From Candidatus Omnitrophota bacterium (GTDB taxonomy: Bacteria; Omnitrophota; Gorgyraeia; Gygaellales; Profunditerraquicolaceae), in the NCBI GenBank assembly GCA_026387355.1, contig JAPLLW010000011.1, forward strand, positions 9,504 through 73,503: a stretch of 64,000 nucleotides of DNA, in the 5' to 3' direction. This document shows positions 1-18,822 of this stretch, piece after piece. The notes under the pieces were generated by a model. It saw only the letters and a list, made by a program, of their open reading frames with translations. It was not told the DNA's origin and did not search any database. The first letter of the stretch is position 1; each line of letters starts with the position of its first letter. The position numbers and the translations under genes are program-made.

Positions 1-603
1 GGACAATTCCCTGGCAAAGTCTTCGTCTTCAACTAATCTTATTCCATTAGTATTAAGCATCAAATGACGTATTTTCTTAGACTTAGCCAGTTCTATTATT
101 TTGAATATTTCAGGATGCAAGGTCGGCTCGCCACCACTGATTTGCAATACCTCGGGATGGCCTTCATAACGCACATATTGATTCAACATAAAATCTATTG
201 TCTCTAAATCTAGGAATTTATGCCCCTGCGCCTGCGCATAGCAGCTTGCGCAGCAAAGATTACAGTCATCAGTTACTTCAAGTAGAGCCAAACAGGTATG
301 CTGCTGGTGGTTAGGACAAATTCCGCAATCATCGGGACACCCTAGCTTTATTACGCTTCCGTATTCAAGTGGGCTTTGCCCCGGCTTATTAAAGGCTAAG
401 CTATGCGTGTACATATTAATATCAGAAGAGATTAGTGCTTCGAATTCTCCGTGCTCAAAACAACGTTTAAACATATACACTTTATCATTCCTAACCCTGA
501 TCTGAGCATCAAGGGTTTTCTTGCACACAGGACAGATTGAACGTGTTAATTCTAAGAAAATATAATCTTTTTCTTTTTGTGTTTGTTGGATAATTTTAGT
601 CAT
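1..603 (-). CDS. radical SAM enzyme, N-terminal 201 aa (3' end lies beyond the window edge). Cys-rich N-terminal extension, then a CxxxCxxC cluster motif
   Basis: Own translation of the reverse complement: MTKIIQQTQKEKDYIFLELTRSICPVCKK...CPDDCGICPNHQQHTCLALLEVTDDCNLCCASCYAQAQG...ISGGEPTLHPEIF. CNLCCASC is the CxxxCxxC motif and GGEPTL is the glycine-rich SAM motif. Absent from the ORF track because the stop is outside the window. Confidence 0.75.
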   Translation of the reverse strand, partial: MTKIIQQTQKEKDYIFLELTRSICPVCKKTLDAQIRVRNDKVYMFKRCFEHGEFEALISSDINMYTHSLAFNKPGQSPLEYGSVIKLGCPDDCGICPNHQQHTCLALLEVTDDCNLCCASCYAQAQGHKFLDLETIDFMLNQYVRYEGHPEVLQISGGEPTLHPEIFKIIELAKSKKIRHLMLNTNGIRLVEDEDFARELS

Positions 604-608
604 CTAAG

Positions 609-782
609 TTAATGTGGCCTCAAAATACCTGTTACTGACAACATACAAGTACCTAATAAAACTAACGGAACAAGCAAAATAATGGCAACGATTCCTATTG
701 AAATCGCTTTAATAATTTTTGAATCGGTAAAATATGCTAGTATTAATAGTAAGATGACTACTGCGACAATTACGTGAAACAT
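609..782 (-). CDS. 57-aa small membrane protein, paralog 1 of a PLV(L/F)LGTC-motif family. Not in the ORF track
   Basis: Own translation: MFHVIVAVVILLLILAYFTDSKIIKAISIGIVAIILLVPLVLLGTCMLSVTGILRPH. Two hydrophobic helices. The C-terminal motif is shared with 844-1137 and 1744-2040. Lies 6 nt upstream of the radical SAM start. Confidence 0.5.
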   Translation of the reverse strand: MFHVIVAVVILLLILAYFTDSKIIKAISIGIVAIILLVPLVLLGTCMLSVTGILRPH

Positions 783-843
783 AGTTGCTACCCCCTCATT
801 CTAAAAAGATTAAGGAAAATACATTTTTGTTTCAGGATTTTAT

Positions 844-1137
844 TCATCGCATAGGTACAAATAAGCTTCTTAAAGATGATCCTCCTACTGCCAAAAGGCA
901 TGTCCCAAGAAATACTAAAGGTATTAATACTAAAGCTATAAGAATAGCAATTAATATCTTTCTTGTACCAGCACTTTCCTTTATCTTCTTCAATATATTG
1001 CTACCACCTAATATCGCTATAATCAAGATAGAACAGATTACCCAAACTAGAAAACCGCTACCATTCCAATTTTGTATTAACCCATTTAAAAAAGCTACAA
1101 CAAAAAGCAATAACACAAAAATTGTTTTTCGATTCAT
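844..1137 (-). CDS. 97-aa small membrane protein, paralog 2 (…IPLVFLGTCLLAVGG…)
   Basis: ORF track. Three predicted TM helices. Motif shared with the two neighbours. Same strand as every flanking gene, so chosen over the overlapping plus-strand ORF 785-1162. Confidence 0.5.
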   Translation of the reverse strand: MNRKTIFVLLLFVVAFLNGLIQNWNGSGFLVWVICSILIIAILGGSNILKKIKESAGTRKILIAILIALVLIPLVFLGTCLLAVGGSSLRSLFVPMR

Positions 1138-1151
1138 ATTATCTCCTTTCT

Positions 1152-1718
1152 TTAGAAAATAAACGGAATTAGCATCTTAGTATCTTTAATATACTCCTCA
1201 TATTCTGGAAGCGCTACTTTAAGCATCTCTTCTTCTTTCTTAGACCTTAAGTAGTAAAGAAACGTGACTATAGGCGTATATAAAATTATAAAATAGTTAG
1301 AAATAAGCAAACCGGAACCCAGCACAACCAGGATCATAAAGAAATACATCGGGTGCCTTACCATTTTATACGGGCCAGCTTTAACTAAGCTATGCCCTTC
1401 TTTAATTGCCGCGGAGATTGCCCAATTTTGTTTTAAATAAAGGATGGCTGCAATATAGCCGCTTACACCTATAAGCATAATCGCTAGTCCAAGAAGTTGC
1501 GCAATAACATTGGCTTTATATGTTCCGAAATAAACGCGAACTGAGAACCAGCCAAAGACCACTAAATATGGCGCAACAACTTGGAGCCTTGCAATTAAAC
1601 CCCCGCTTTGTTTGTGTTTACCCCTAAAGCGAATCTGCGCAATAATCGCAACGATTAATAAAAACCCCCAAATATCTTTAAAAATTAATTCTGCCTTATA
1701 TTGAGAAATCATATTCAC
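1152..1718 (-). CDS. Membrane methyltransferase of the isoprenylcysteine carboxyl methyltransferase / phospholipid methyltransferase family
   Basis: Polytopic protein with KAGPYKMVRHPMYFF…EEEMLKVALPEYEEY. The RHPxY motif and the C-terminal EE..L…P.Y..Y block are typical of ICMT/PEMT-type enzymes. Confidence 0.7.
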   Translation of the reverse strand: MNMISQYKAELIFKDIWGFLLIVAIIAQIRFRGKHKQSGGLIARLQVVAPYLVVFGWFSVRVYFGTYKANVIAQLLGLAIMLIGVSGYIAAILYLKQNWAISAAIKEGHSLVKAGPYKMVRHPMYFFMILVVLGSGLLISNYFIILYTPIVTFLYYLRSKKEEEMLKVALPEYEEYIKDTKMLIPFIF

Positions 1719-1743
1719 CTCATAAATAACAACTTAGCAAGAA

Positions 1744-2040
1744 TCAATAAAACCATTTTAAAAAACATGTACCTAAAAGTACAAGGGGAAAACTAATCAT
1801 TGCGAATAGAAAACCTATACCTATGTATTTTCTTTTTTTGCCGAAATAGTTAACAAGAAGTAAACTTAATATAAGAAAAACTGGATATCCTATTGAACCT
1901 AACGGGTTAAAAATATGAAAACTCGTTGTCAAATACCTTACCAGGTACAAAATTAGACCTATCCCACCAGGTATTATCAAAAAACCTACTAAAAAGTCAA
2001 TTACCTTTTCACTCGTCTTTTCATAGATCTTTTTCTCCAT
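1744..2040 (-). CDS. 98-aa small membrane protein, paralog 3 (…FPLVLLGTCFLKWFY)
   Basis: ORF track. Hydrophobic helices. The C-terminal motif aligns with 609-782 and 844-1137. Confidence 0.55.
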   Translation of the reverse strand: MEKKIYEKTSEKVIDFLVGFLIIPGGIGLILYLVRYLTTSFHIFNPLGSIGYPVFLILSLLLVNYFGKKRKYIGIGFLFAMISFPLVLLGTCFLKWFY

Positions 2041-2081
2041 TTTTCTCCCTCCCTTCTATACTAGCTATCTTCTCTAACCTC

Positions 2082-2630
2082 TTATTCCTTTTTACTACCT
2101 TCAAGTTTTTTTGTGATTAATACCAGATTGAGATCTGCTATGATCTCTGTAGCTATTTTGGAATAGCTATCCGTTCCATAGGCCCGATAAACCTTACCCC
2201 ACCTTCCTTTATCAGTAGAATATGATACATGAATGTCCGTTCCCTCAACCTTATGGGTCCCTCCATTAAATCCATCATTAGGAATTAAACCAAAAAAGAA
2301 ATATTTTGTACCCTCATTTTTCTTAAAATGCTTAATTCTAAGCCTTGCTGCTAAATCAGCTCCTTTGGGAGACGCAACGATTGTATATCCCCTTTCCACC
2401 AACTTTCCTTTAAGATGCCTCTCAAAATCCCCTAAAACAGCCCCTTGGTCCTTAGGGTCCCCTGATAATTCAAAATAAATAGTGTCAATTGCACTGCCGG
2501 ACTTCATCTGAATCCTGTCAAACAAATAATCATCCGCCGTAAAGGTAATCCAAGTACAGCCAGTTGCAATTAAATAAAATATTACCGATAAAAATAAACC
2601 CGCAAAAAGTGCTTTTCTAGTAAAATTCAT
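2082..2630 (-). CDS. probable lipoprotein, unknown function
   Basis: Signal peptide ending LIATGC (lipobox-like), then a soluble domain. ATGA overlap with the lgt stop. Confidence 0.5.
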   Translation of the reverse strand: MNFTRKALFAGLFLSVIFYLIATGCTWITFTADDYLFDRIQMKSGSAIDTIYFELSGDPKDQGAVLGDFERHLKGKLVERGYTIVASPKGADLAARLRIKHFKKNEGTKYFFFGLIPNDGFNGGTHKVEGTDIHVSYSTDKGRWGKVYRAYGTDSYSKIATEIIADLNLVLITKKLEGSKKE

Positions 2631-3343
2631 TTTAATCTCCGGTTTGTTTTCAGAAAATACCCTGCCAGAATAATAAAAATAGAGCCTGTTATAAGCTGGG
2701 CCAAACTTAAATTAAATATTGAATTAACTGTATCTGCGCGCAAAAACTCTACCCAAAACCTAAAAAAACAATACGCAAGTAAGAATATCTTAAATAAATC
2801 CCCTTCTTTTCTTTCTTTCTCTCGCACTGACCATAAATATAAAAAGAGTATTAAACAAAAAATTGACTCATAAATCTGCGTAGGATGCCTTATCGCGCCT
2901 TTATAAAATATCCCCCAAGGTAAACAAGTAGGAACCCCATAACAGCAACCATTTAGAAAACAACCAATTCTTCCTATGGCAATACCAAGCGCTAACCCTG
3001 GTGCGAATAAATCACCTGTAGAGCGTTTTACTTTTAGAATCCTCTTAGCAATTATTACCCCAATATATCCGCCAATTAAACCACCAACAATAGTTTTCCC
3101 CCCTACTTCGGGAAAAAGTATAGCCAATGGATTATTAATATAGAAATCAGGGTATACAAATAAGGCTGAGCCTAGCTTACTGCCTATCAATCCACCTAAT
3201 AAAGCAGCAAAAACAATATACAAAACGTTCTCCGAGTTATATTCTTTACGTTTTGCCTCAAGGTAAATAACAAACCCTGCTGCGCTGTATGCCAACACGC
3301 TAAATAAACTATATGCTATTCTTCCGTATAATTGACTATACAT
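2627..3343 (-). CDS. lgt: prolipoprotein diacylglyceryl transferase
   Basis: Lgt signature GRIGCFLNGCCYG and multi-TM topology. Stop codon is TGA. Confidence 0.85.
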   Translation of the reverse strand: MYSQLYGRIAYSLFSVLAYSAAGFVIYLEAKRKEYNSENVLYIVFAALLGGLIGSKLGSALFVYPDFYINNPLAILFPEVGGKTIVGGLIGGYIGVIIAKRILKVKRSTGDLFAPGLALGIAIGRIGCFLNGCCYGVPTCLPWGIFYKGAIRHPTQIYESIFCLILFLYLWSVREKERKEGDLFKIFLLAYCFFRFWVEFLRADTVNSIFNLSLAQLITGSIFIILAGYFLKTNRRLK

Positions 3344-3365
3344 AATGAACTTTTATTACGAACAT

Positions 3366-4130
3366 CTAACCTGTTTGTGCCATAATAGCTGGGTACATCG
3401 TAACTGCAAACCAGCTTTTTATTTCACGAACAAATTCTTCTTTTGAGTCTTTCATCAAATACTCTGCGTGCGAACCATTCTTGATAATAACAAGCTTCTT
3501 ATTTGATTGAGTTTGCTCAAAAAGGATTTTAGAATGCCACGGCTTAACTACCCAGTCTTTCTCTCCGTGAATATAACAAACCGGAATATTTACTCTATCT
3601 ATATTATCAATTGGTTTTTGTTTTTTACGCCAGAAAACCCCTGGCCTAAAACCTCTCCCTTTTAGCCCGTCCGGAGTAAATAAGGTATACGCCAGGTCGC
3701 CCTTCAGATCTAAATTCCAGAAATTATAATCAATTTTATCGGGATCTGATGCAGCGCTTACGCAGATTAACGAATCAACTCGCTTGCCTTGCGCTAAGAA
3801 ATTAATTGCTACGCTTGCTCCCAATGAAAAGGCAATTAACCCGGTTTTCTTATATTTACCTTCTATATACTCTAGGACTGCTTTTAGATCTTTCCCTTCA
3901 TTGCTTATCCAGCTAAAAAGACCACCGCTCTTTCCATGTCCCCTAAAGTCAAACATAAATACGTCATATTCGTCAATGAGCCTGTTTTTTAACTCTTGGA
4001 GCAAAACCGCGTCTTTACTATTGTAAAACCCATGCGCAATTATAATAATCCTATCATGATTATTCAGCGCATGCTCATAAGCAATCTTCTGACTATCTTG
4101 CGTTATTAAATTACCTTTCAGTAATTTCAT
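3366..4130 (-). CDS. alpha/beta-fold hydrolase
   Basis: HGFYNS…GHGKSGG oxyanion region and the GxSxG nucleophile elbow FSLGAS. Confidence 0.7.
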   Translation of the reverse strand: MKLLKGNLITQDSQKIAYEHALNNHDRIIIIAHGFYNSKDAVLLQELKNRLIDEYDVFMFDFRGHGKSGGLFSWISNEGKDLKAVLEYIEGKYKKTGLIAFSLGASVAINFLAQGKRVDSLICVSAASDPDKIDYNFWNLDLKGDLAYTLFTPDGLKGRGFRPGVFWRKKQKPIDNIDRVNIPVCYIHGEKDWVVKPWHSKILFEQTQSNKKLVIIKNGSHAEYLMKDSKEEFVREIKSWFAVTMYPAIMAQTG

Positions 4131-4143
4131 GATAATTCCCGCG

Positions 4144-5847
4144 TTATTTATTTACCATTTCCGATACAGCTTTTCTTTTTATCTTCCGGGAAGCTGTTTT
4201 GGGAAGCTCAGCGTTCCAAATTTCAAAATCTACTATTCTTTTATAATCAGCAAGATTTTCGCTAAGGCGAGAAATATCTTTCGAGATCTTATCCTTAATC
4301 TTCTGCGCATCTGTATGCTCGCCTTGCTCAAACGCATCAAGATTAGGGACAATTACGGCATAAACCTCTTCGCAGCCTTGACGCATTCCTCTCGTAGCGA
4401 TTCTACCCAAAACACAAATCTCCTTAATTAAAGGGCTCCTACCCATCACATCTTCTACTTCTTCAGGAAATACTTTTTTTCCTGCCCCAAGTACAATCAG
4501 GTTTCTAATTCTTCCTGAAATGTATAAAAATCCGTCTTTATCAAAATATCCTAAATCGCCCGTATGAAACCAGCCGTACTTAATAACTTCCGCTGTCTTC
4601 TCAGGGCTCTGAAAATACCCTTTCATGACATGATTACCCCTGGTTAATATCTCTCCGTCTTTAGAGCTATCATTTTCTTTTAGTATTTTAACCTTTGCCC
4701 CTGGAAGCGCTTTCCCAACCGAACCAAACCTGCTCTGCTTATAAGTATTAACTGTTATAACAGGAGAGGTTTCAGTTAGGCCGTAACCTTGCAATACCCT
4801 AAAGCCTAAAGCATTAAAATTTATCTCGACATCTATATTTAATGGCGCCCCTCCGCTCATAAAGCTATGTAGTGACCCGCCGAACTGCTGTTGTACGCTC
4901 CAAAATAATAAACAGCCTATCCTAATATTAAACTTAAGCAAACTTTTTGATAAACTCAATAAGCTATTAAAGATTTTTTGCTTATACGCGGGCATCTTAG
5001 CCGCCTTATCCATAATTCCATCGTGGAGCATCTTTAATACAAGCGGCACGCAAATCATCATCACTGTGTGTGTCTCTTGCATAAGTGAAATTATGCGGGT
5101 AGGTTTTACGCTATCGCAGTATGTAATACAGGCGCCGGCATATAAAGGAGAGATAAGCCCTCCAGTTAACTCAAGCGTATGGTTTAATGGCAGGATAGAA
5201 AGAAACTGCTCGCCAATCTTATAATTGATTATTTCACTTAAGGACCTGACCTGAAACATTAAATTCCTAAAAGTAAGCTCAACGCCCTTGGCTGATCCTG
5301 TAGTACCTGAGGTATATATTATTAACGCGGTATCTTCCTCGTGTATCGGCCGGTTCTTATTTTCTTCACTGACAAGTTTCAGATCTTTTAGCTTAATTAT
5401 ATCTTGCCTCTGACTATCATCTATGACAATAACATATTTTAATTCCGGCAGATTTGTCCTTATTTTATCAATAAGCTCCAAATGCTTTTCGCTAACGAAT
5501 ATGCATTTAGTCTGGCTATTACTTAGTATAAACTGCACTTCAGCTTCACTAAGCTTAACATCTACAGGCACAACTATAGCAGCGGCACAAACAATGCCGA
5601 AAAAAGCTACTGACCATTCAGGCCTATTCTCCGAATATATTGCGATTTTGTCATCTTTAACTATACCTAATTTTATAAGATTAGAAGAAACATCAACTGT
5701 TCTCCTGCCTAATTCCACATAAGAGATTTTTCTAAATGACCCGTCTTTCTCTTTTATCTGAACGGCCGTAATGTCGCCATAATTCTTATTTATCGCCTCC
5801 ATAATATCAATTATAGTAACGGTATTTAAGCTTATTTTCTTTTTCAT
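4144..5847 (-). CDS. AMP-dependent synthetase/ligase (fatty-acyl-CoA/ACP ligase-like)
   Basis: AMP-binding motif YTSGTTGSAKGV. 567 aa. Confidence 0.8.
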   Translation of the reverse strand: MKKKISLNTVTIIDIMEAINKNYGDITAVQIKEKDGSFRKISYVELGRRTVDVSSNLIKLGIVKDDKIAIYSENRPEWSVAFFGIVCAAAIVVPVDVKLSEAEVQFILSNSQTKCIFVSEKHLELIDKIRTNLPELKYVIVIDDSQRQDIIKLKDLKLVSEENKNRPIHEEDTALIIYTSGTTGSAKGVELTFRNLMFQVRSLSEIINYKIGEQFLSILPLNHTLELTGGLISPLYAGACITYCDSVKPTRIISLMQETHTVMMICVPLVLKMLHDGIMDKAAKMPAYKQKIFNSLLSLSKSLLKFNIRIGCLLFWSVQQQFGGSLHSFMSGGAPLNIDVEINFNALGFRVLQGYGLTETSPVITVNTYKQSRFGSVGKALPGAKVKILKENDSSKDGEILTRGNHVMKGYFQSPEKTAEVIKYGWFHTGDLGYFDKDGFLYISGRIRNLIVLGAGKKVFPEEVEDVMGRSPLIKEICVLGRIATRGMRQGCEEVYAVIVPNLDAFEQGEHTDAQKIKDKISKDISRLSENLADYKRIVDFEIWNAELPKTASRKIKRKAVSEMVNK

Positions 5848-6587
5848 TGTTTATCGTGCTCTCTTCTTTCTTTTGTGGATTCGGCAGGAACACCCGCATA
5901 GACACTATGCGGCTCAACCTGCTTGTTTTTCCCCAATACAGCCCCTGCAGTAATAAAAGCACCGTCTCCGATCTCTGCTCCTGCTAAAACTACAGAATTT
6001 AGGCCGATAACCACATTTTTGCCAATTTTAACTTTGCGCAATATTAACCTGTTACGCTCAAAAGAATGGCCGATTACCGTTGCATGGCCCCCTATAACAG
6101 TATTATCCCCTATCTCAAGCAGGGATAAATCTGCGCAGATCTTTGAGTTGATTTGCACGTTCTTACCGACTTTAGCCCCCATTAGACGGAAAAATAATGC
6201 CGCGATAGGAGTAAGCAGGATAAAATCCATAAATGTAATCGAAACTATTATATACAGCGCATTAATAAACATCCACCGCATCATACCTATGGAAGCTACG
6301 CGATACTCTCCTTCTTTAAGATTCAATCTTAATACTATTCTTAATAACCCCAGTATAGAAATTAAGCTAAACCCGTAAACAAAATAAGCCAAAACTAAGC
6401 TAACGCAAAGCAACCAAACACGTAAAACAATAAAATAAACAACGGTGTGAGTCCATACATAATAGATCAACAAAACACCTGGGAAGATTGCCGAACCAAT
6501 AACTAAGATACCTATCAGATGAAGACAGGCTACGAATAAAAGCTGTAACATTGTCGTAAACAAAGCCTTAACTTTAACAGTCACCAT
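5844..6587 (-). CDS. membrane-anchored hexapeptide-repeat (left-handed beta-helix) acyltransferase
   Basis: N-terminal TM helices, then imperfect hexapeptide repeats (IGDNTVIGGHATVIG…IGKNVVIGLNSVVLAGAEIGDGAFI). Start overlaps the stop of the ligase. Confidence 0.65.
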   Translation of the reverse strand: MVTVKVKALFTTMLQLLFVACLHLIGILVIGSAIFPGVLLIYYVWTHTVVYFIVLRVWLLCVSLVLAYFVYGFSLISILGLLRIVLRLNLKEGEYRVASIGMMRWMFINALYIIVSITFMDFILLTPIAALFFRLMGAKVGKNVQINSKICADLSLLEIGDNTVIGGHATVIGHSFERNRLILRKVKIGKNVVIGLNSVVLAGAEIGDGAFITAGAVLGKNKQVEPHSVYAGVPAESTKERREHDKQ

Positions 6588-6662
6588 TTAAAACCTCCTT
6601 GCACAATAAGTGCACACCGACTTATTCGATAAGACCGGGCGTTATTTAACAATCGCATAATA

Positions 6663-7154
6663 TTATACCCTGTTATCAAAATTACTCTTTGATAATTTAG
6701 CGCACCATTTCTCAAGAACATGTGCAAGCTGACTTAATTCACCTTGATTTAAAAGCTTAGCTAACTCTTGTATTTTCCTATAATAACCAGGCCACAATTG
6801 ATCAAGCAGATCCGAACCCTTTTGGCTGATTTTCACTAAGTTAACCCTTCTATCGCCTTTTAAATTTAAACGCTCAATAAAACCTTCTTTTTCTAATTTA
6901 TCAATAAGCCGCGTCATATTTGATGCAGTGACTACCAGATGCCTGCCAATCTCGATTTGACTTATCCCCTCATCTCTACCCTTGTGCTTTATGACCATCA
7001 TAGCATTAAACTTTGCCGGAGTGAGGTTATGGGGTCTTAAAATATCAGAAATAACTTTTTCTATGAGGGTAAAGGTGCGTGCCACTCCGTATATCGAGCC
7101 TTCCAATAAACTATTTTTGTATATGTCTACCCCAAACTGCCTAAGCGGTTCCAT
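6663..7154 (-). CDS. MarR-family transcriptional regulator
   Basis: Winged-helix region (…ISQIEIGRHLVVTASNMTRLIDKLEKEGFIERL…) typical of MarR. 163 aa. Confidence 0.75.
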   Translation of the reverse strand: MEPLRQFGVDIYKNSLLEGSIYGVARTFTLIEKVISDILRPHNLTPAKFNAMMVIKHKGRDEGISQIEIGRHLVVTASNMTRLIDKLEKEGFIERLNLKGDRRVNLVKISQKGSDLLDQLWPGYYRKIQELAKLLNQGELSQLAHVLEKWCAKLSKSNFDNRV

Positions 7155-7199
7155 TTATTAGCTAACCTCCTTACCTAAATATAGTTTACTATGCAATAG

Positions 7200-7211
7200 T
7201 TGACTTGTCAA
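7200..7211. promoter_or_regulatory. perfect palindrome TTGACTTGTCAA overlapping a putative -35 of the marR promoter (candidate MarR operator)
   Basis: In minus sense: TTGACA-N17-TAAACT, then an AAGGAGG ribosome-binding site and the marR ATG at 7154. Confidence 0.35.
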
Positions 7212-7263
7212 GTATATCTGTACAAAATAAACGAGAGGCTATAAAGCCCCCCGTTTTATAAAA

Positions 7264-7425: not shown

Positions 7426-7920
7426 TTATTTATAATTCTTGGCAGTTAAGAACCATTCTATTAACTGCTTTAATGTATTGTTAACTTCAGGGCTTAAGCC
7501 CTCACCAAAAGAAATAACCTTTGGCTGAATTGCCAAAACCATTATATCAACCTTAAAACTGTTTTTCAAATAACTGATGGCAAGCGATATGGACGCATCG
7601 TGGGTCGAAAAAAAGTTTACTGTTTGAATATCTTCTCCTTCGTACATCCTGAATTCACCGGGAGAGCCTCCAAAATCCACTGCGTCAATTATTAAAACAG
7701 TATCCGGCTTATCTTTTATAATCTTTCCAAGATAATTCTCAGGGCTTGAACTTGAGTCATAGACAATATAAGGCACCTTACCTTCTATAGCCGAAGCCAG
7801 CATTGATCCAATGCCATCGTCGCTACATAAGGTATTTCCTATACCTAAAACCAAAACTTTGCCGGTAAGATGTAACTTGAGATGCTCTAAGGCGCCTAAA
7901 TGTTCAGAACTTTTTTCCAT
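7426..7920 (-). CDS. hydrogenase maturation endopeptidase (HycI/HyaD family)
   Basis: GIGNTLCSDDGIG and DAVDFGG motifs. 164 aa. Confidence 0.75.
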   Translation of the reverse strand: MEKSSEHLGALEHLKLHLTGKVLVLGIGNTLCSDDGIGSMLASAIEGKVPYIVYDSSSSPENYLGKIIKDKPDTVLIIDAVDFGGSPGEFRMYEGEDIQTVNFFSTHDASISLAISYLKNSFKVDIMVLAIQPKVISFGEGLSPEVNNTLKQLIEWFLTAKNYK

Positions 7921-8732: not shown

Positions 8733-10748
8733 CTATTCGTTTATAACCTTCCAGATTTTGTCCAGATTCTTACGCGCTTCTTCTTCTCCTCTACGGGCAA
8801 ACTCTGAGGCCCTGTGCAATTCAAGCCAATATAGCCCTGAAGTATCAGGATGCAAAACTATATCCGCAAGCAACCCCTCTTTTTGCGCTACCTCAGACTG
8901 AAGTATTTCAAAAGTACTAAATATAATATCCAGTATATTAGTTTTAAATAGATCTTTAAAGTGCCTGCCTAAATTAAACCAGTTCTTCTTTTTTATCTCT
9001 CCGGAGATATTTACCTTTATCCCCTGTTTTATCTTTTCGTATTGATTCAATATATCCTGTCGCGAAGGCGTAACATTAACCGCGATAATCTTTTTTACCC
9101 CCATCTTTAGAAGCGGTTCGGTGGGAAGCGGATTAGTTACCCCGCCATCAAAGAGAAATTCTTCTTTAAATTTAAAAGGCGCAAAAACTCCGGGCATAGA
9201 ACAGCTCGCCATAATTGCATCTGCCAATAAACCTTTATCGAGAACGCGAGGCTCTTTCCTTTTAACATCAGTAGCAATAATCTTAAGCGGAAGGCGTACA
9301 TCATAAAAAGTCTTATCTCCTAAATGCTTCTTCAAAAACCCATGCAGTTTATTGCCTTTAAGAAATCCGATATGCGGAAATGTCAGGTCAATCAAACCCC
9401 AGATATGCTTTGGCTCCTTAAATTCCTTCATAATCTCCAGAATCTCGGAACTTGACTTGCCAATCGCCCAAAGACTAGCAATTAGCGCCCCCATACTGGA
9501 ACCGGCAATAATATCTATCGGGATATTCTCTTCTTCAATTACCTTTAATACGCCCAGATGACAAAAACCATAACCTACCCCTACTCCCAAGACTAAACCT
9601 ACCATACATTCGCCCACATAGCGGGAGATTCTTCTTACCGCTCTGGTATACTCGCTATCCGGCTCATCCAAGACCAACCGGTCAGTAAGACCAGGCTTAA
9701 TCATAGGTAAAGTGGCAAAAATATTCCTATCTAAGATCTTAGCCTGTTCGATAGGAGTAACTTTGGAGAATTTATATTCATTGATAATAATCTTAATTTT
9801 ATCGACTTGAAAATCAAACTCTTTCTTTAACCTAAGAGTAAGATTATGCGTTTTCTCAAGCTCTGGCTCATCCGGACCACTCAATAAATGTATAAGGTCG
9901 GACTGATTCAAGATACTAAATATATTCTTATCTAGAAGCGATGGTAGGTCTAAGATCAGGTAGTGATAGTCATTTACTAACCAACTTAAGATACCCACCA
10001 GACTTCTTACGCACTGATCATCGAGCGGATTATAATAAAAACAAAGCACGTCAATCCCAAAACTGCTATTTAAGATAAAATCTTTGGCTAAGCTTGAATT
10101 CCCGGAATCCTTACTAGAAAGATCAAATACTTTCTCATTACTAATCCCCAGCCTCCCCGGTAAACTATGCTTTTTATTAGCAGAGAGTATGTCCAGTATG
10201 ATTACTGACTTACGTGTCTCATTTTTAAGGCTTAAGGCAAGATTCAAAGCATAAATTGTTTTTCCTGCCTGAGAATATGAACTAAAAACAGAGATAAACG
10301 TACTTACAAAAATTGTTTTTTGATGGACGTCTTTTCTTTTAAGCCTGCGCGATAGGGTCTTACTTAAATCAATAGCTAAACGTGGGATTTTATTAATAAT
10401 AAAATCAAAATCTTCTTTACTAATAACCAGAATCAAACAATCATTAGTTGCCTGGGCAGTAACCGAATGCGTCTCGTTTGTAAGAAGCGAGATTATTCCG
10501 AAATATTTACCTCGGTGCAGATATTCCAGTATCTTCTGTGTGCCCTGGTTATCCTTAGTGTAAATAACCACTCTTCCTTGGGCCAAACAATAAAAACCGC
10601 TAGGGGAAGATCCTTCTTGATAAATTATATCCCCTTTTTTCAATGAAATAACGCTTGAGCGCTGCATGATAATTTTGCGCTGATGGATAGATAAATCCGC
10701 AAAGATAGGAAATTCCTGGATAACTAAACTCTTATTGATTAATTCCAT
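8733..10748 (-). CDS. three-domain protein: N-terminal cNMP-binding-like (CAP effector) domain, degenerate ParA/MinD-like middle domain, C-terminal patatin-like phospholipase
   Basis: aa 1-140: CAP_ED-like (FGIISLL…HSVTAQA). Middle: ParA-like (SQAGKT, HYLILDLPSLLD). C-terminus: patatin GxSxG (AGSSMGA) and DGG (FLFDGGV) catalytic dyad motifs. Confidence 0.75.
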   Translation of the reverse strand: MELINKSLVIQEFPIFADLSIHQRKIIMQRSSVISLKKGDIIYQEGSSPSGFYCLAQGRVVIYTKDNQGTQKILEYLHRGKYFGIISLLTNETHSVTAQATNDCLILVISKEDFDFIINKIPRLAIDLSKTLSRRLKRKDVHQKTIFVSTFISVFSSYSQAGKTIYALNLALSLKNETRKSVIILDILSANKKHSLPGRLGISNEKVFDLSSKDSGNSSLAKDFILNSSFGIDVLCFYYNPLDDQCVRSLVGILSWLVNDYHYLILDLPSLLDKNIFSILNQSDLIHLLSGPDEPELEKTHNLTLRLKKEFDFQVDKIKIIINEYKFSKVTPIEQAKILDRNIFATLPMIKPGLTDRLVLDEPDSEYTRAVRRISRYVGECMVGLVLGVGVGYGFCHLGVLKVIEEENIPIDIIAGSSMGALIASLWAIGKSSSEILEIMKEFKEPKHIWGLIDLTFPHIGFLKGNKLHGFLKKHLGDKTFYDVRLPLKIIATDVKRKEPRVLDKGLLADAIMASCSMPGVFAPFKFKEEFLFDGGVTNPLPTEPLLKMGVKKIIAVNVTPSRQDILNQYEKIKQGIKVNISGEIKKKNWFNLGRHFKDLFKTNILDIIFSTFEILQSEVAQKEGLLADIVLHPDTSGLYWLELHRASEFARRGEEEARKNLDKIWKVINE

Positions 10749-13784: not shown

Positions 13785-14399
13785 TTAAGACTTAATTACT
13801 GCTTCTCGACGACAACCCGGGCAGAGAATCTTTGTGCGCGTTGAACGATTAATTGTTGCGGATCTACTACCGGGAGAGGCCCTCTCTTTTAAACTTAAAC
13901 CTATACTCCTTAAATAGAAAAGTAGAAGCGAGGCATTAGAAAAAGTTAGCGGACCTAATTTATTGGCTACCCATGCGTATTGATCATAGGGAATAATCGG
14001 CACACCGCAACATTCACAAACAATAAATTCCTTTTCTATTGACTGCTTAAGTTCTTGTCTCTTTTCCGTAGTAGCATAATCAAACTCCTGAGAAAGAATT
14101 ATGCCTTTGGTAGTCAAACAATTAGCCTGGCACTGCCCGCAAGATACACAAATATCCCAATGTACGGTAAGTCTTCTTTTGACCAAAGTCCCTTTTATCT
14201 CATCGATAAATTCAATTGCATTCGCAGGGCATACCTGGGCACAAGCAGCACATCCTACGCAACCATCTTGATAAAAATACGGTCGACCGCGAAAACGCTC
14301 ATATGGCTTATGGGGCTTGACCGGGAAGTTGTTGGTGTAGGGCCTACTAAATAGTGACTTTAACGCCTGCTTTAATTCTCTTACTTTAGGTCTTCGCAT
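13785..14399 (-). CDS. group-4 hydrogenase 2x[4Fe-4S] subunit (NuoI/EchF-like)
   Basis: Two CxxCxxCxxxCP motifs (CVGCAACAQVCP, CVSCGQCQANCL). Confidence 0.7.
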   Translation of the reverse strand: MRRPKVRELKQALKSLFSRPYTNNFPVKPHKPYERFRGRPYFYQDGCVGCAACAQVCPANAIEFIDEIKGTLVKRRLTVHWDICVSCGQCQANCLTTKGIILSQEFDYATTEKRQELKQSIEKEFIVCECCGVPIIPYDQYAWVANKLGPLTFSNASLLLFYLRSIGLSLKERASPGSRSATINRSTRTKILCPGCRREAVIKS

Positions 14400-16128
14400 T
14401 TTTATTCTTACGCTTAAAAATCCATTTTAAAGTGAGAATATTATAAATATCTAAATCTTCCGACTTAAGGAAACGATAATAAATGCGCAGTAACGGCAGG
14501 TTTTCGATAGTTTTATAAAATTCTGTTGCCGGAAAAAGCGGACGGCTATACCCGGATTCTCCACCGACAAAAAAAGTATCTTCTCTAACGCCCTTTTTAT
14601 TCATTGAATTCCAAATTATAAAACCTATAACTAACGCCATAATTATAAATACTGAAACAAAAATACTATTCCAGCTACCGCTATAATCTAATATAAACGA
14701 AAAAGACGGAGCAATGAATTTTCCTACAAAATAATTTGCAAATACCCCAAGCATAACGCAAAAAGCAGCTAAAGTTAGCAAAGGTACAAGCATCTCCCAG
14801 GAAGCCTCACCGATTTTTTCCTTTGACTTAAGATTGTCCTGACCTAAGAAGATAGCATGGATAAACTTGATGAAACTAGCCAAGGTAAGCGCACTACCAA
14901 ACATAGCGGCAACTAAAGCAAACATGTAAATAAATCTTAAGCATATGTTTGTTGTAGCTAATAGACCTAGAAAAGCGCCTTGATAAAGCATCCATTTTGA
15001 AGCAAATCCATTTAACGGAGGAATACCAGAGATAGAAAGAGAGAAAACTATTGCCGCTAGAAAAGTAAGCGGCATATAACGTGCTAAACCTCCCAGTCGA
15101 TCTAATTCAAATGTATTGGCCTTCTTCTCTACTGCTCCACCTACTAGAAATAACCCGCTCTTATATATGGAATTATTAATCATATGAAATATAGCGCCGA
15201 TAATGCCGATTGGGGTTGCGGTACCAATCCCTAAGACCATATAGCCCACCTGGCTTATAGCATGATAGGAGAGCAGCTTCCTCAAATCATGTTGAATCAA
15301 AGCCATCATTACTGCAAAAATAATCGTAAGGCTACCGGTAATAAGCAAGAGGCCGATTATAAAATTGTTCATCACAAAAAAATCCAGGCATATGCGGGAG
15401 AGAATATATATACCAAGCAGCTTATCCAGTGAAGCAGGCAATATCGCCATTACCGTAGCCGGAGCACTCTGGCTTGCCGTAGGAATCCAGGTATGCAGCG
15501 GGCCTGAACCTGCCTTTGCCAATGCCCCTATAAGCATAAGCACGATCGCTACCCAACAGACCGGCCGATTCAAAATCATCGTCGATCCGGTGAACATACT
15601 ATTTGATCCGGTAAAGGAAGTATAAATAATAGCGCCCGCAATAAAACAGAGGTAAGAAAATCCTAGAATTACTCCCGCTTTCTTAGCGCTAAACTTTGAA
15701 TTTAAATTAAGCAACATATAAAGGATAAAGATCGAACCACCCCAGGATAATGTAAAGACAATAAAATCCGTAGCCAGGATTTCTAAATTAGTAAAAACCA
15801 TAAGCAGGATTAACCAGGAGAAATACCCGCCTTTACCGTTAGAATAATCTTTGGAAAAAAGACAAATTAGGAAACCGAAAAGATTAGCAAAGACTAAGAC
15901 CAGACGAGAGAGCTTATCCAAAGTAAGAAATACGGTGAACCCGGGGAAAATCTGCTTGCTCCAGGCAAAATGCGGGCTTAGCGATATGATTATGGCGTAG
16001 ATTAAACTGAATAATAAAACTCCTAGGCTTATGTTTTTTCTTAGATTATCGAGGCGCCCTAAAAAGAAAAAACATATCCCGGATAAAAGCGGTAAAGTTA
16101 GCAGGAAAAATAAACTGATATTCGTCAT
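14386..16128 (-). CDS. complex-I antiporter-like membrane subunit (NuoL/MrpA/EchA-like)
   Basis: About 16 TM helices. Conserved GPLHTWIPTA…PATVMA motif. Confidence 0.8.
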   Translation of the reverse strand: MTNISLFFLLTLPLLSGICFFFLGRLDNLRKNISLGVLLFSLIYAIIISLSPHFAWSKQIFPGFTVFLTLDKLSRLVLVFANLFGFLICLFSKDYSNGKGGYFSWLILLMVFTNLEILATDFIVFTLSWGGSIFILYMLLNLNSKFSAKKAGVILGFSYLCFIAGAIIYTSFTGSNSMFTGSTMILNRPVCWVAIVLMLIGALAKAGSGPLHTWIPTASQSAPATVMAILPASLDKLLGIYILSRICLDFFVMNNFIIGLLLITGSLTIIFAVMMALIQHDLRKLLSYHAISQVGYMVLGIGTATPIGIIGAIFHMINNSIYKSGLFLVGGAVEKKANTFELDRLGGLARYMPLTFLAAIVFSLSISGIPPLNGFASKWMLYQGAFLGLLATTNICLRFIYMFALVAAMFGSALTLASFIKFIHAIFLGQDNLKSKEKIGEASWEMLVPLLTLAAFCVMLGVFANYFVGKFIAPSFSFILDYSGSWNSIFVSVFIIMALVIGFIIWNSMNKKGVREDTFFVGGESGYSRPLFPATEFYKTIENLPLLRIYYRFLKSEDLDIYNILTLKWIFKRKNKNAKT

Positions 16129-16742
16129 TTTATCTTTAGTAAGCTCTTAGCGATTTTCTTAATGTGATAATAAACCGCGGCTGTAAAATCAAGCATATTC
16201 AAATACATATTGCAACTCATAGGAGTACATAGACCGGCAATAAGCCTCTGATTATGGTGATTACGGTATTTATCAACCATACTATCAATATGCTCTTCGT
16301 TCCTTAAAACCTCTTGCACTAAAGCGGGGTTATCTTTTTCTAAGACAAAAACCACCTCTTCTAAGGCAACTTTTGTTTTATTGTAAAGTTCTTTATATTC
16401 TTCAACAGCGACCTCATCAAATAAAAGCCTCTCTTCTATCTTGATTTGAATCCTCTCAAGAATATCTTTACAATAATCTCCGATTAACTCAAAATCAGCT
16501 GCAATATCCGCATAAACTAAGATTCTCATTTTTTCTTCAGTAGAATAAGCGGTGCGACCTAAATCAATAATGTTTTTGTTAATATCTTCTTCTAGGGCAT
16601 TCAACCTAGCTTCGTCTTCCAGGGCCTTAGTAATAAGCTCCACGTCGTGTTCAATAAAAGCGTCATAGGTGAGCTTCCACATAGACAATGAGCTTTTTGC
16701 CATCTGAGTTACTTTTTCCTTAATACTATTTAGATCTACCAT
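16125..16742 (-). CDS. PhoU-domain-like all-helical protein embedded in the hydrogenase operon
   Basis: Two-repeat acidic helical protein resembling PhoU/DUF47 (…EDEARLNALEEDINKNIIDLGR… repeated). Translationally overlapped on both sides. Confidence 0.4.
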   Translation of the reverse strand: MVDLNSIKEKVTQMAKSSLSMWKLTYDAFIEHDVELITKALEDEARLNALEEDINKNIIDLGRTAYSTEEKMRILVYADIAADFELIGDYCKDILERIQIKIEERLLFDEVAVEEYKELYNKTKVALEEVVFVLEKDNPALVQEVLRNEEHIDSMVDKYRNHHNQRLIAGLCTPMSCNMYLNMLDFTAAVYYHIKKIAKSLLKIK

Positions 16743-17934
16743 AGTAGCTCTCCTTTAGTTTAAGGGTTTTATCCTGCGACAATTTAATCAAATCCCAACC
16801 ATTCATTATTTTAGAATTATCCGATTTATTAATCACCGCCACCCTCTCCGTACAGCAATAACAAGGATCGACCGCTGCTAGAGTAAGAGTAGCGTCGGAG
16901 ATCGTACCTCCCACAGCAGCTACCTTATCGGACGCTACATTCATAAAGCTTGGGGAACGGATCTTATGCCTTAACGGCCGGTTAGTTCCGTCACTTACTA
17001 TATAATGGAAACATTCACCTCTGGGAGCCTCCACCCTACCGATACCCTCACCAACTGGGATATCCTTAATGTCAGCGTCAATTATTCCGGATTTAGGCAT
17101 CTTATCTAAACATTGCCTGATAAGGCTTATGCTTTCATATAACTCTAAAATCCTTACTACGGTTTTACAAAATATATCTCCGTCTTTTTCTATAATTACC
17201 TTCCAGTCAAGCCGGTCGCTTGAGCCATATGGTTCATCCCGACGTATATCAATATTCACACCTGAAGCACGCGCAGTCGGGCCTACAACCGCCCATTCAA
17301 TTGCCTGCTGCCTAGTTAATCTCCCAACATCCTTTAAGCGCATCTTTATTATCGGGTCATCCATAATCGCGCCATGAAATAAATCTATCCCCGGCAATAA
17401 TTCATCCAGCATCTTCTTAATCTGCGGGATATCATCGTCTTTTATATCACGCCTAACTCCTCCGACCTTAAACATCGCGTAATTATTACGGTTACCAGTG
17501 ACCATCTCAAACATATCCAAAACCGGCTCGCGGAACTTCCAGGCCCACATCCAGACAGTATTATAACCGATAAAGTGCCCCACCAACCCCAGCCACAAAA
17601 GATGACTGTGAATCCTCTGCAATTCATCTATAATCGTACGGATGAAAAGTGATTTTTCAGGTACAATATTAAATTCTCCGCCCAATATATTTTCTACTGC
17701 CAAAACATAAGCATATGGATGGCTGGACGAACAAATACCGCAGATGCGCTCAACTAAAAACGGAACCTGATCAAAATGCTTAGACTCAGAGAGTTTCTCT
17801 ATGCCGCGGTGGTTATAGCCAATGATAATATCAATATCAACCACCTTCTCGCCCTCGACATAAAGCTGGAAAAACTCCGGTTCTTCCTGTAACGGATGAT
17901 ACGGGCCTATAGGAACAATGATTTTATGACTCAT
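16726..17934 (-). CDS. [NiFe] hydrogenase large subunit, group 4 (NuoD/EchE-like)
   Basis: L1 motif RICGICSSSH (RxCGxCxxxH) and L2 motif DPCYCC (DPCxxC). Confidence 0.85.
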   Translation of the reverse strand: MSHKIIVPIGPYHPLQEEPEFFQLYVEGEKVVDIDIIIGYNHRGIEKLSESKHFDQVPFLVERICGICSSSHPYAYVLAVENILGGEFNIVPEKSLFIRTIIDELQRIHSHLLWLGLVGHFIGYNTVWMWAWKFREPVLDMFEMVTGNRNNYAMFKVGGVRRDIKDDDIPQIKKMLDELLPGIDLFHGAIMDDPIIKMRLKDVGRLTRQQAIEWAVVGPTARASGVNIDIRRDEPYGSSDRLDWKVIIEKDGDIFCKTVVRILELYESISLIRQCLDKMPKSGIIDADIKDIPVGEGIGRVEAPRGECFHYIVSDGTNRPLRHKIRSPSFMNVASDKVAAVGGTISDATLTLAAVDPCYCCTERVAVINKSDNSKIMNGWDLIKLSQDKTLKLKESYYGRSK

Positions 17935-18359
17935 TTTTTATTCCTCATAGGGTAGTCGCCTTGCGGCCATTCATCAGCGAGAAGCAATTTCTTTAAATTC
18001 GGATGGCCTATAAAATTAATTCCGAACATCTCCCAAATCTCACGCTCGATCCATTCTCCTCCCGGGAATAACGGTGAGATAGAAGCAACCTCGGGCTTTA
18101 GCTTATCATCTAACAAAAGACGCACTGTATAAATCTCGCCAGATGGATCATTGCTAAAATGATAGAGTAATTCAAAACCATGCGGAAGCTCTACAGCTGA
18201 AGCAGTAATAAATCTTAACTCTAGATTCTTAAGCAGGATTTCGGTCGTCTTAAGAATGTCTTTTTTATCCAGACTAAAATATATTCTCTTAGTAGAGACC
18301 TCTCTCCAATCTTTAATCTTGTCCTGCAGCTTTTCTTTAATTCTATCCCTCATCTCCAT
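17931..18359 (-). CDS. hydrogenase NuoC/EchD-like subunit
   Basis: 30-kDa-subunit-like fold. Position between the small and large subunits. Confidence 0.65.
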   Translation of the reverse strand: MEMRDRIKEKLQDKIKDWREVSTKRIYFSLDKKDILKTTEILLKNLELRFITASAVELPHGFELLYHFSNDPSGEIYTVRLLLDDKLKPEVASISPLFPGGEWIEREIWEMFGINFIGHPNLKKLLLADEWPQGDYPMRNKK

Positions 18360-18363
18360 AAGA

Positions 18364-18822
18364 CTATTTGCCTTTCTTCATTTTATTCACTAACTGCAGA
18401 ATGCCTGAAATAATAGCTTCGGGTTTAGGAGGACAACCCGGGATATATAAATCGACCGGCAGGATCTTATCCAACGGCTCACCGACATTATAGCTGTCTC
18501 TAAACATGTGCTGCGAACAGGCGCAGATACCACAAGCAACCACCACGCACGGCTTAGCTGTCTGCTCGTAAACCTTCTTCATCCTGACAATTGCCTTCTT
18601 ATTCATTGCGCCGGTAATTAAGAGCGCATCCGCATGCCGGACCGAACCGATAAGCTGAATACCAAAACGCTCAATATCATGCCTAGGAGTAAAACAATCC
18701 AATATCTCGATATCACAGTTATTGCAGGAACCAACACTCATATGAAATACCCAGATGGATTTAGTTAGGGCCTTACTTCTAATATCCATATTATAAACCG
18801 AATGAGGCAAGGATAACCGCAA
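18364..18822 (-). CDS. [NiFe] hydrogenase small subunit (NuoB/EchC-like)
   Basis: GSCNNC, CGICA and PGCPP cluster-binding motifs. Confidence 0.8.
   Translation of the reverse strand: MRLSLPHSVYNMDIRSKALTKSIWVFHMSVGSCNNCDIEILDCFTPRHDIERFGIQLIGSVRHADALLITGAMNKKAIVRMKKVYEQTAKPCVVVACGICACSQHMFRDSYNVGEPLDKILPVDLYIPGCPPKPEAIISGILQLVNKMKKGK

Follow-up and report, generated by a model that had tools for sequence, protein, structure and literature searches.

A Tes-like radical SAM enzyme, an Lgt-like transferase and cysteine-bearing small membrane proteins form a recurrent bacterial gene module that looks like a lipid or lipoprotein tailoring system

Closest described systems and the Omnitrophota locus

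Tes, also called GDGT-MAS, is the archaeal tetraether lipid synthase, which couples the phytanyl chains of archaeol at their termini. As a radical S-adenosylmethionine (SAM) enzyme, it removes hydrogen from a lipid tail's terminal carbon, and a C-C bond forms after the radical has been parked on a sulfide in the C-terminal cluster; the route passes through a substrate-S-[4Fe-4S] adduct, and limiting SAM gives a +S product (PMC13459092). Bacterial homologues of Tes are a class already known, proposed as makers of membrane-spanning lipids and suspected of producing brGDGTs (branched glycerol dialkyl glycerol tetraethers), with no member experimentally tested so far (bioRxiv 10.1101/2024.06.25.600576). 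Here we describe such a homologue at the left edge of a 64,000-nucleotide stretch of a Candidatus Omnitrophota bacterium (GenBank assembly GCA_026387355.1, contig JAPLLW010000011.1, positions 9,504 to 73,503 of the forward strand), which as a whole is called the window below. It is encoded with an Lgt-family transferase, a methyltransferase of the isoprenylcysteine methyltransferase (ICMT) family and three small cysteine-bearing membrane proteins, here called mini-proteins. Compared across genomes, the conserved core consists of the radical SAM enzyme of the Tes/GDGT-MAS family, the Lgt-family transferase and one to three small membrane proteins with a lipobox-like cysteine, and the ICMT-family methyltransferase is a frequent accessory. 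The region looks like a conserved membrane lipid or lipoprotein tailoring module and not like a system for peptide antibiotic maturation. The module is widely conserved in bacteria and apparently undescribed; our search of the accessible literature found no paper tying Tes homologues to Lgt, ICMT-like genes or such mini-proteins.

An earlier, sequence-only reading of this DNA had pointed to a radical SAM gene with its cysteine motifs, three small open reading frames (ORFs), a methyltransferase and the neighbouring lgt and lipoprotein genes, and all of these are present on the minus strand. It had also placed them in one operon with gaps of 6-26 nt; the single unit stands, but the gaps between the radical SAM gene and the lipoprotein gene are 5, 61, 14, 25-31 and 41 nt. 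In the window ORF map, every gene in 1-7154 is on the minus strand, the window holds the upstream half of a long operon, and the unit extends far past 1-2040. The features on which the argument turns are, by window position:

1..603, minus strand: N-terminal 201 codons of a radical SAM enzyme of the Tes/GDGT-MAS family (Pfam Zn_ribbon_HMPTM and Radical_SAM; ATG at 603)
609..782, minus strand: 57-aa two-helix mini-protein ending in ...PLVLLGTCMLSVTGILRPH (motif, phmmer; gene call on Logan contigs)
844..1137, minus strand: 97-aa three-helix mini-protein ending in ...PLVFLGTCLLAVGGSSLRSLFVPMR (motif, phmmer; orthologues at the equivalent position elsewhere)
1152..1718, minus strand: ICMT/PEMT-family membrane methyltransferase (Pfam ICMT/PEMT; likely true start ATG 1712, 186 aa)
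1744..2040, minus strand: 98-aa three-helix mini-protein of the MEKKIYEK... type, ending in ...PLVLLGTCFLKWFY (motif, phmmer, AlphaFold model)
2082..2630, minus strand: 182-aa predicted lipoprotein (signal peptide with LIATGC)
2627..3343, minus strand: Lgt-family membrane enzyme with the variant signature GRIGCFLNGCCYG (Pfam LGT, 160 bits)

The radical SAM enzyme and its gene neighbourhood

The remainder of the radical SAM gene was read from three contigs of other samples (L001, L002 and L004), which are 100% identical to the window across the 1540-3153 nt of overlap compared and extend leftwards, giving a full length of 461 aa. The cysteine motifs inside the window are CPVCKK...C48xxH51, CPDDCGIC (89-96) and CNLCCASC (114-121). 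The rubredoxin-like CxxC...CxxH site (C24, C27, C48 and H51), the N-terminal auxiliary CxxxCxxC (C89/C93/C96) and the radical SAM CxxxCxxC (C114/C118/C121) are all invariant in alignment A4, the C-terminal cysteines are also conserved, and Pfam Zn_ribbon_HMPTM scores 64-66 bits. Against Tes/GDGT-MAS of Methanocaldococcus jannaschii (PDB 7TOL), the enzyme aligns at E 3.2e-70, query 19-457 on chain 24-497, and shares the zinc ribbon, the N-terminal auxiliary cluster motif, the core and the Cys-bearing C-terminal domain. Unlike that enzyme, it is bacterial, from a host not expected to make archaeol, its C-terminal region is shorter, and it is embedded with Lgt-like, ICMT-like and mini-protein genes, none of which, to our knowledge, has been reported next to archaeal Tes.

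The best-scoring named family in NCBIfam was TrsS (NF045646), at 352.6 bits against a cutoff of 490 and with an alignment spanning the whole 441-position model, while Tes (NF045702) gave 327.4 bits against a cutoff of 450, its model match reaching to about position 313 of 486. From other loci, ten relatives scored 178-365 bits with Tes and 245-380 bits with TrsS. Because the scores lie under both cutoffs, the enzyme is, by these model comparisons, a member of the Tes/TrsS superfamily and of neither named equivalog. TrsS, a named but uncharacterised relative (Haft and Tolstoy 2025, as cited in PMC13188914), is known here from the selenoprotein table of PMC13188914, where it stands beside Tso-named selenoproteins and is listed with rhodanese-like ones. 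As far as that table goes, a theme of sulfur and selenium trafficking is common to both, with a YedE-like protein and a selenium/sulfur (Se/S) carrier here and a rhodanese/DsbD-like selenoprotein there; no protein of our cluster matched a Tso family at the NCBIfam thresholds used.

Several paralogous small Cys-containing ORFs adjoining a radical SAM gene are also the mark of the radical SAM/SPASM systems that make ribosomally synthesised and post-translationally modified peptides (RiPPs), such as sactipeptides and ranthipeptides. The sequence-only reading had framed the locus in this way; worked out, the radical SAM enzyme would crosslink or otherwise modify the mini-proteins as precursor peptides and the methyltransferase would cap them. 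The NCBIfam matches of the enzyme to SPASM maturases lend this some colour, but they are weak, partial and limited to the generic core (residues ~100-270), and a Pfam scan of the full-length protein even at E<=1 returned just Radical_SAM, Zn_ribbon_HMPTM and Fer4_12, with no SPASM or twitch domain. The enzyme instead aligns end to end with the lipid synthase GDGT-MAS, and its family is lipid-acting where characterised; since the characterised relative acts on a lipid tail, the main prop of the RiPP framing is gone. The supposed peptides are polytopic membrane proteins whose single conserved cysteine is predicted to lie across the membrane from the cytoplasmic enzyme, and no leader/core layout, protease or RiPP-type exporter is conserved across the loci. 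We therefore consider RiPP-like maturation very improbable.

Scanning metagenomes with alignment A4 of the radical SAM enzyme gave 80 loci. Where at least 3 kb of flank was available on both sides, an Lgt-like gene lies <=4 kb from the radical SAM gene in 20 of 22 loci, and among the same 22 an ICMT gene occurs in 9, DUF4395 in 6 and ArsP in 7. No other gene accompanies the radical SAM gene as constantly as the Lgt-like gene, whose adjacency had been noticed earlier but underweighted. Seen from the mini-protein family, radical SAM and ICMT-like genes are present in 8/8 contexts long enough to show them, and the grouping of radical SAM, small protein and methyltransferase genes noted in the earlier reading recurs widely. 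Gene architecture of the module follows the radical SAM tree.

The Omnitrophota operon begins with genes for a MarR regulator, an acyltransferase, an acyl-CoA ligase, a hydrolase, the Lgt-like enzyme, the lipoprotein, a mini-protein and the ICMT-like enzyme, and continues with two mini-proteins, the radical SAM enzyme, an ArsP-type permease, a Se/S carrier, a Carb_kinase-like protein and a YedE-like transporter. From the Lgt-like gene onwards this order holds in all Omnitrophota loci, with an optional lipoprotein gene and with 0-2 further mini-protein genes between the ICMT-like and radical SAM genes. Patescibacteria, the source of the distant members of the mini-protein family, show either the order radical SAM, ICMT, DUF4395, Lgt-like, mini-protein or the order radical SAM, ICMT::DUF4395 fusion, ArsP, Lgt-like, mini-protein. 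In these versions the ICMT-like gene is always followed by, and sometimes fused to, DUF4395 (L028:6772-7254, L031:8641-9090, L054:8382-9455), which has a conserved FxFCRY and a Cys-rich C-terminus, GFCPAxKLYxC..GGCC. A suspected kinship of DUF4395 with the YgaP-type 'GxCP' membrane domain gained no support from Pfam, which reports only DUF4395. A rumen alphaproteobacterial metagenome-assembled genome (MAG) carries a radical SAM enzyme 33% identical to ours with two analogous mini-proteins (..ILAGTC.. and ..LFGTC..), an Lgt-like gene and a long ICMT-like gene.

In clades with the radical SAM and Lgt-like genes only, small ORFs that are not homologous to the mini-proteins lie alongside and have the same layout of K/R residues, a helix, [GA]C and a short tail, some with a canonical lipobox (FLTAC, IAGC). 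A sequence-agnostic rule for this architecture picked out 44/505 neighbouring same-strand ORFs and 2/2573 other ORFs of the same loci.

The mini-proteins, the Lgt-like enzyme and a proposed lipid tailoring

All three window mini-proteins carry the motif PLV(L/F)LGTC(M/L/F)L (alignment A1), and a looser pattern, [LIVMF][LIVMFA]G[TS]C, is found in only these three ORFs of the six-frame ORF set of the whole window. They had been taken for paralogues from the shared motif, and pairwise phmmer comparisons agree (E 6.6e-6 to 1.7e-3). A Shine-Dalgarno-like stretch precedes each ORF, all three are called as genes in independent assemblies, and they match hypothetical proteins of a Candidatus Omnitrophica MAG (P0003 for the 57-aa and P0001 for the 97-aa protein). 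The 98-aa copy is the one kept in every Omnitrophota locus, and orthologues of the 97-aa copy stand between the ICMT-like and radical SAM genes in five others (L005, L008, L010, L012 and L057). A word-indexed search found only 13 relatives; a full hidden Markov model (HMM) search of 1.84 billion representative proteins reached far deeper, defining a family of 279 representatives at E<=1e-3.

A typical member has 90-125 aa and three hydrophobic segments, and AlphaFold models the 98-aa copy with helices at 3-41, 48-69 and 71-97 (mean predicted local distance difference test score, pLDDT, 74). The motif cysteine is kept in 150 of the 161 family sequences inspected, in line with the sequence-only reading, and 11 lack it. 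In the last helix the logo reads P at -7, L at -6, two variable positions, F, L or V at -3, G at -2, A (68), T (42), S (23) or G (16) at -1, and then Cys. Position -1 is thus A/S/G in 107/150 sequences; T stands there in 42, the three window copies among them. In 121/150 sequences the cysteine follows the last K/R by 20-21 residues, and the K/R patch, the spacing of about 20 residues and the motif together resemble an n-region, h-region and lipobox layout. The tail beyond the cysteine has 0-18 residues (median 9), and some homologues (the L025 proteins and P0141) have further transmembrane helices beyond it. In these proteins of two or three helices the motif belongs to the last one, and it is N-terminal only in L025 and some high-GC (guanine plus cytosine) variants; being internal or C-terminal, it fails the location that a lipobox has in a signal peptide. 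A second conserved motif, (D)YY..KKVxDFxIGFFG, is cytoplasmic and N-terminal. N-terminal extensions that are soluble and lack signal peptides, together with loops rich in K/R, place the cysteine on the trans side, at the predicted outer end of a transmembrane helix and on the predicted side of the Lgt active site. There are 1-3 paralogues per locus with diverging N-termini and a retained motif, as expected of substrates, and the mini-protein gene commonly abuts or overlaps the Lgt-like gene.

The Lgt-like enzyme scores 160.2 bits with Pfam LGT (gathering cutoff 24.9) and 106.8 bits with TIGR00544, under its cutoff of 118.9; other Lgt equivalog models score far below theirs. Aligned with E. coli Lgt (5AZB), it keeps R143, G154, Y235, R239 and E243, and R143, R239, E243 and G154 are presumably important for phosphate binding and catalysis. 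The GRxG...G and Y...R...E..R motifs recur among the Lgt-like proteins of the module. The signature GRxGCFxxGCCxG is present in 36/53 of them and in 117/120 of the closest homologues of the window enzyme. No second Lgt homologue was found within the 64-kb window.

In Pfam the methyltransferase scores 51 bits with ICMT and 42 bits with PEMT; it has VRHPMY and KKEEEML, and aligns with Ma-ICMT (PDB 4A2N) at E 1.7e-16; the NCBIfam isoprenylcysteine methyltransferase model (NF040696) gives 87.8 bits, below its cutoff of 160. Its start is probably ATG 1712, used in public gene calls (186 aa), instead of GTG 1718, which lies inside a Shine-Dalgarno-like GAGGTG. A cysteine near the C-terminus, a lipid transferase and an ICMT-family enzyme recall eukaryotic CaaX processing (prenyltransferase, Rce1/Ste24, ICMT), and the median tail of 9 residues prompted a reading in which the tail is trimmed and the methyltransferase acts on the cysteine carboxylate. 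The mini-protein tail, however, is no CaaX box. We set this reading aside because some homologues have helices beyond the cysteine, no protease is conserved, and the membrane is predicted to separate the cysteine from the active site of the methyltransferase. On the same grounds of predicted outer-face cysteine and helices after it, the carboxyl methylation of the mini-protein cysteine suggested by the sequence-only reading appears doubtful, and the Lgt-like enzyme is the most plausible one to act on this residue.

From the gene content, family assignments, motif conservation and synteny observed above we infer the following catalytic steps and their order. At the outer leaflet, the mini-protein cysteine would receive a diacylglyceryl or similar lipid group, taken from a phospholipid by the Lgt-like enzyme, in the way that Lgt treats lipobox cysteines. 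The cytoplasmic Tes-like enzyme would carry out radical chemistry on lipid-tail termini, of either the donor phospholipid or the protein-bound lipid, ending in Tes-like C-C coupling or in arrest at the C-S stage, and the ICMT-like enzyme, also on the cytoplasmic side, would methylate a thiol or an acidic group that the lipid bears. We regard it as quite possible that lipidation of the mini-protein cysteine falls to the Lgt-like enzyme, tailoring of lipid-tail termini to the Tes-like enzyme and methylation of a lipid-borne group to the ICMT-like enzyme. This view draws on the way the genes adjoin, on the topology and the lipobox-like architecture, on a copy number that varies and on the replacement of mini-proteins by unrelated proteins of the same architecture. 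We hold it tentatively because of the Thr at -1, the altered Lgt signature, and thiol-relay or sulfur-insertion alternatives. A more specific form, a new protein lipidation in which a specialised Lgt puts a thioether-linked glycerolipid on the mini-proteins and the Tes-like enzyme couples the tail ends (as a macrocycle or tail to tail with a second lipid), is rather unlikely.

The bacterial Lgt-LspA-Lnt pathway is the nearest parallel for the lipidation step, as the proteins beside an Lgt-family enzyme combine a K/R patch, a hydrophobic helix (about 20 residues) and, on the trans side, [LFV]-G-[ATSG]-C. Some of the differences from that pathway weigh against the proposed reading. Lipoproteins have their motif in an N-terminal signal peptide, the mini-proteins internally or at the C-terminus; Thr takes position -1 in the window copies, where a lipobox usually has [GAS], and no lspA or lnt gene is part of the module. 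Residues +2 to +5 after the cysteine are hydrophobic, and the cysteine may for this reason lie inside the bilayer and not at a signal-peptidase site. In the enzyme, the positions of E. coli N146, E151 and H103 are occupied by Cys, Cys and Val (GRIGCFLNGCCYG; GGKTIVGG), and that of L152 is also Cys, giving a Cys triad. Its acceptor or donor may differ from Lgt's because these residues are replaced and the TIGR00544 cutoff is missed; it could also be the only Lgt of these organisms. Conserved cysteines recur module-wide (the Lgt-like GC..GCC, the DUF4395 C-terminus, the CVC of ArsP), and together with the sulfur and selenium transport genes they would suit a thiol or chalcogen relay equally well.

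Gene context also supplies points against it. The 80 loci are the closest relatives of the query and not an unbiased sample of bacterial Tes homologues, and a Dehalococcoidia clade of radical SAM enzymes (L013-L022 and L034; 44-48% identical to the window enzyme) has no module partner within 10 kb. The Lgt subfamily was found without the module on one Pacearchaeota-labelled contig (L112:1900-2971), which has a gene of the GC..GCC type, a frameshifted DUF4395 remnant upstream and no radical SAM gene. This contig is either a decayed module or mis-binned; an archaeal version of the module was considered and rejected, as the Lgt-like gene stands alone beside the frameshifted remnant. These radical SAM enzymes without partners, and an Lgt subfamily able to occur without them, are what one would see if the adjacency were circumstantial, with a housekeeping lgt and unrelated small proteins beside a stand-alone Tes homologue for membrane-spanning lipids. 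The linkage, however, holds across phyla despite reshuffled gene order, with overlapping start and stop codons and ICMT::DUF4395 fusions. An Lgt-like gene is adjacent to the mini-protein gene in all nine contexts examined in Omnitrophota and Patescibacteria, and the nearest relatives of the Omnitrophota Lgt-like enzyme outside that phylum are the Lgt-like proteins of Patescibacteria modules. Mere circumstance thus has very little chance of being the explanation. Nor did the mini-proteins prove to be a housekeeping family that lacks this company or the cysteine, and the radical SAM enzyme is not a known cofactor-biosynthesis enzyme.

Instead of being substrates, the mini-proteins could serve as scaffolds or small subunits in a membrane complex (radical SAM enzyme, Lgt-like enzyme, ICMT-like enzyme and permease) that makes modified or membrane-spanning phospholipids, with their cysteine as a metal ligand or a redox or thiol relay beside the Cys triad of the Lgt-like enzyme. 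The cytoplasmic N-terminal motif, which is unrelated to any lipobox, speaks for such a role, and so do the three cysteines in the Lgt-like signature loop. The Pro at -7, the Gly at -2 and the hydrophobic residues after the cysteine suggest an intramembrane functional motif, and the proposal that bacterial Tes homologues make membrane-spanning lipids (bioRxiv 10.1101/2024.06.25.600576) fits as well. The variable copy number of 1-3 per locus and the divergent N-termini do not sit well with it, the non-homologous replacements, some with a canonical lipobox, are unusual for a stoichiometric subunit, and the cysteine is missing in some family sequences. A scaffold role is therefore possible but doubtful.

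Sulfur and selenium genes, accessory genes and implications

Left of the window, four translationally coupled genes, their frames overlapping or nearly abutting, follow the radical SAM gene (L001:2320-5690), in this order:

First gene: ArsP_1-type permease with a TPFCVC motif
Second gene: Se_S_carrier/DUF8182 protein, 179 aa
Third gene: Carb_kinase-like protein
Fourth gene: YedE/YeeE-like Sulf_transp protein with GCG and DGCF motifs

Among the loci fetched, only Omnitrophota have this block, which hints at a sulfur or selenium supply for the pathway. A further explanation builds on it, in which sulfur or selenium is inserted into lipid tails, the Tes-like enzyme halting at the C-S adduct and the ICMT-family enzyme S-methylating the resulting thiol, with YedE-like, Se/S-carrier, DUF4395 and IscS/NifU proteins as sulfur suppliers. 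MddA is an ICMT-family enzyme that S-methylates methanethiol, and our ICMT-like protein matches it weakly (E 0.0024). The substrate-S-[4Fe-4S] adduct of Tes and its +S product at limiting SAM (PMC13459092) show chemistry of this kind, the Omnitrophota operon runs on through overlapping genes into the permease, carrier and YedE-like protein, and TrsS, the nearest named family, is tabulated with rhodanese-like selenoproteins in PMC13188914. One Patescibacteria locus has, directly upstream of its radical SAM gene, a cysteine desulfurase gene together with genes for a NifU-like scaffold and an FAD/NAD-binding reductase (L031:3707-5998). The Dehalococcoidia clade likewise pairs its radical SAM enzyme with a methyltransferase: the genes that follow the radical SAM gene overlap and encode a START/SRPBCC-like protein and a class I SAM methyltransferase (e.g. 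L014:9974-12749). Nevertheless, the sulfur and selenium genes are lineage-specific, YedE and the Se/S carrier being confined to Omnitrophota among the loci fetched, and IscS/NifU beside an enzyme with three clusters may just serve cluster assembly; the desulfurase, NifU and reductase of that Patescibacteria locus may amount to a dedicated supply of Fe-S clusters and electrons. Sulfur insertion also leaves no role for the Lgt-like gene and the mini-proteins, the most conserved partners, and we judge it quite improbable.

Upstream of the Lgt-like gene lie the following features:

3366..4130, minus strand: alpha/beta hydrolase, an Omnitrophota-specific accessory (Pfam)
4144..5847, minus strand: AMP-forming acyl-CoA ligase of the long-chain fatty-acid type, accessory (NCBIfam)
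5844..6587, minus strand: membrane-anchored hexapeptide-repeat acyltransferase, accessory (Pfam Hexapep)
6663..7154, minus strand: MarR-family regulator, first gene of the transcription unit (NCBIfam)
7183..7256, minus strand: terminator-like hairpin of the upstream operon (7256-7229), then a promoter-like site (7211-7183) ahead of MarR

No terminator-like site of comparable strength lies between the MarR promoter region and position 1. The MarR gene also heads the cluster in L005, L006, L007 and a 22-kb ENA contig. The hydrolase gene has a variable position (L005, L007, L011, L012 and L032), and the acyl-CoA ligase recurs in L005, L010, L011 and L012, together with the hexapeptide acyltransferase, while L007 has an MFS-acyltransferase-AMP-ligase fusion instead. 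In NCBIfam the acyltransferase stays below cutoff with two models, at 92 bits for the Pls/PosA terminal domain and at 66 bits for heptaprenylglyceryl-phosphate O-acetyltransferase. The 182-aa lipobox protein (2082-2630), whose lipoprotein signal (LIATGC) is near-canonical, belongs to no Pfam or NCBIfam family and has homologues in some, not all, Omnitrophota clusters (L006, L007 and L023); it may serve the Lgt-like enzyme as a second acceptor. Near the cluster and also on the minus strand, the window holds a hydrogenase maturation protease gene (7426-7920) and a gene set for a group-4-like membrane-bound [NiFe] hydrogenase or complex I-like assembly (13785-19702), with large-subunit, 30-kDa, NuoH-like, antiporter-like and ferredoxin-like subunits and a PhoU-domain gene inserted among them. 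A 671-aa protein (8733-10748, minus strand) joins a CRP-like cyclic-nucleotide-binding domain to a patatin-like phospholipase domain, a combination that suggests a nucleotide-regulated lipase.

Bacterial Tes homologues are counted in metagenomes as possible producers of brGDGTs, lipids that underlie widely used palaeotemperature proxies. In the sampled clades, Tes-like enzymes are almost always encoded with an Lgt-like enzyme and Cys mini-proteins, and often with an ICMT-like enzyme, which calls for caution in their use as brGDGT markers. The module context offers a concrete, testable handle on the real role of these enzymes, and the mini-proteins, with about 280 representatives and a sharply conserved motif, make up a small membrane protein family that no model covered before. 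The module is frequent among Omnitrophota and Patescibacteria, whose membrane biology is largely unexplored. If lipidation with tail coupling were true, bacteria would have protein-anchored or protein-primed membrane-spanning lipids, and the bacterial 'Tes homologues' would then not act as brGDGT synthases on their own.

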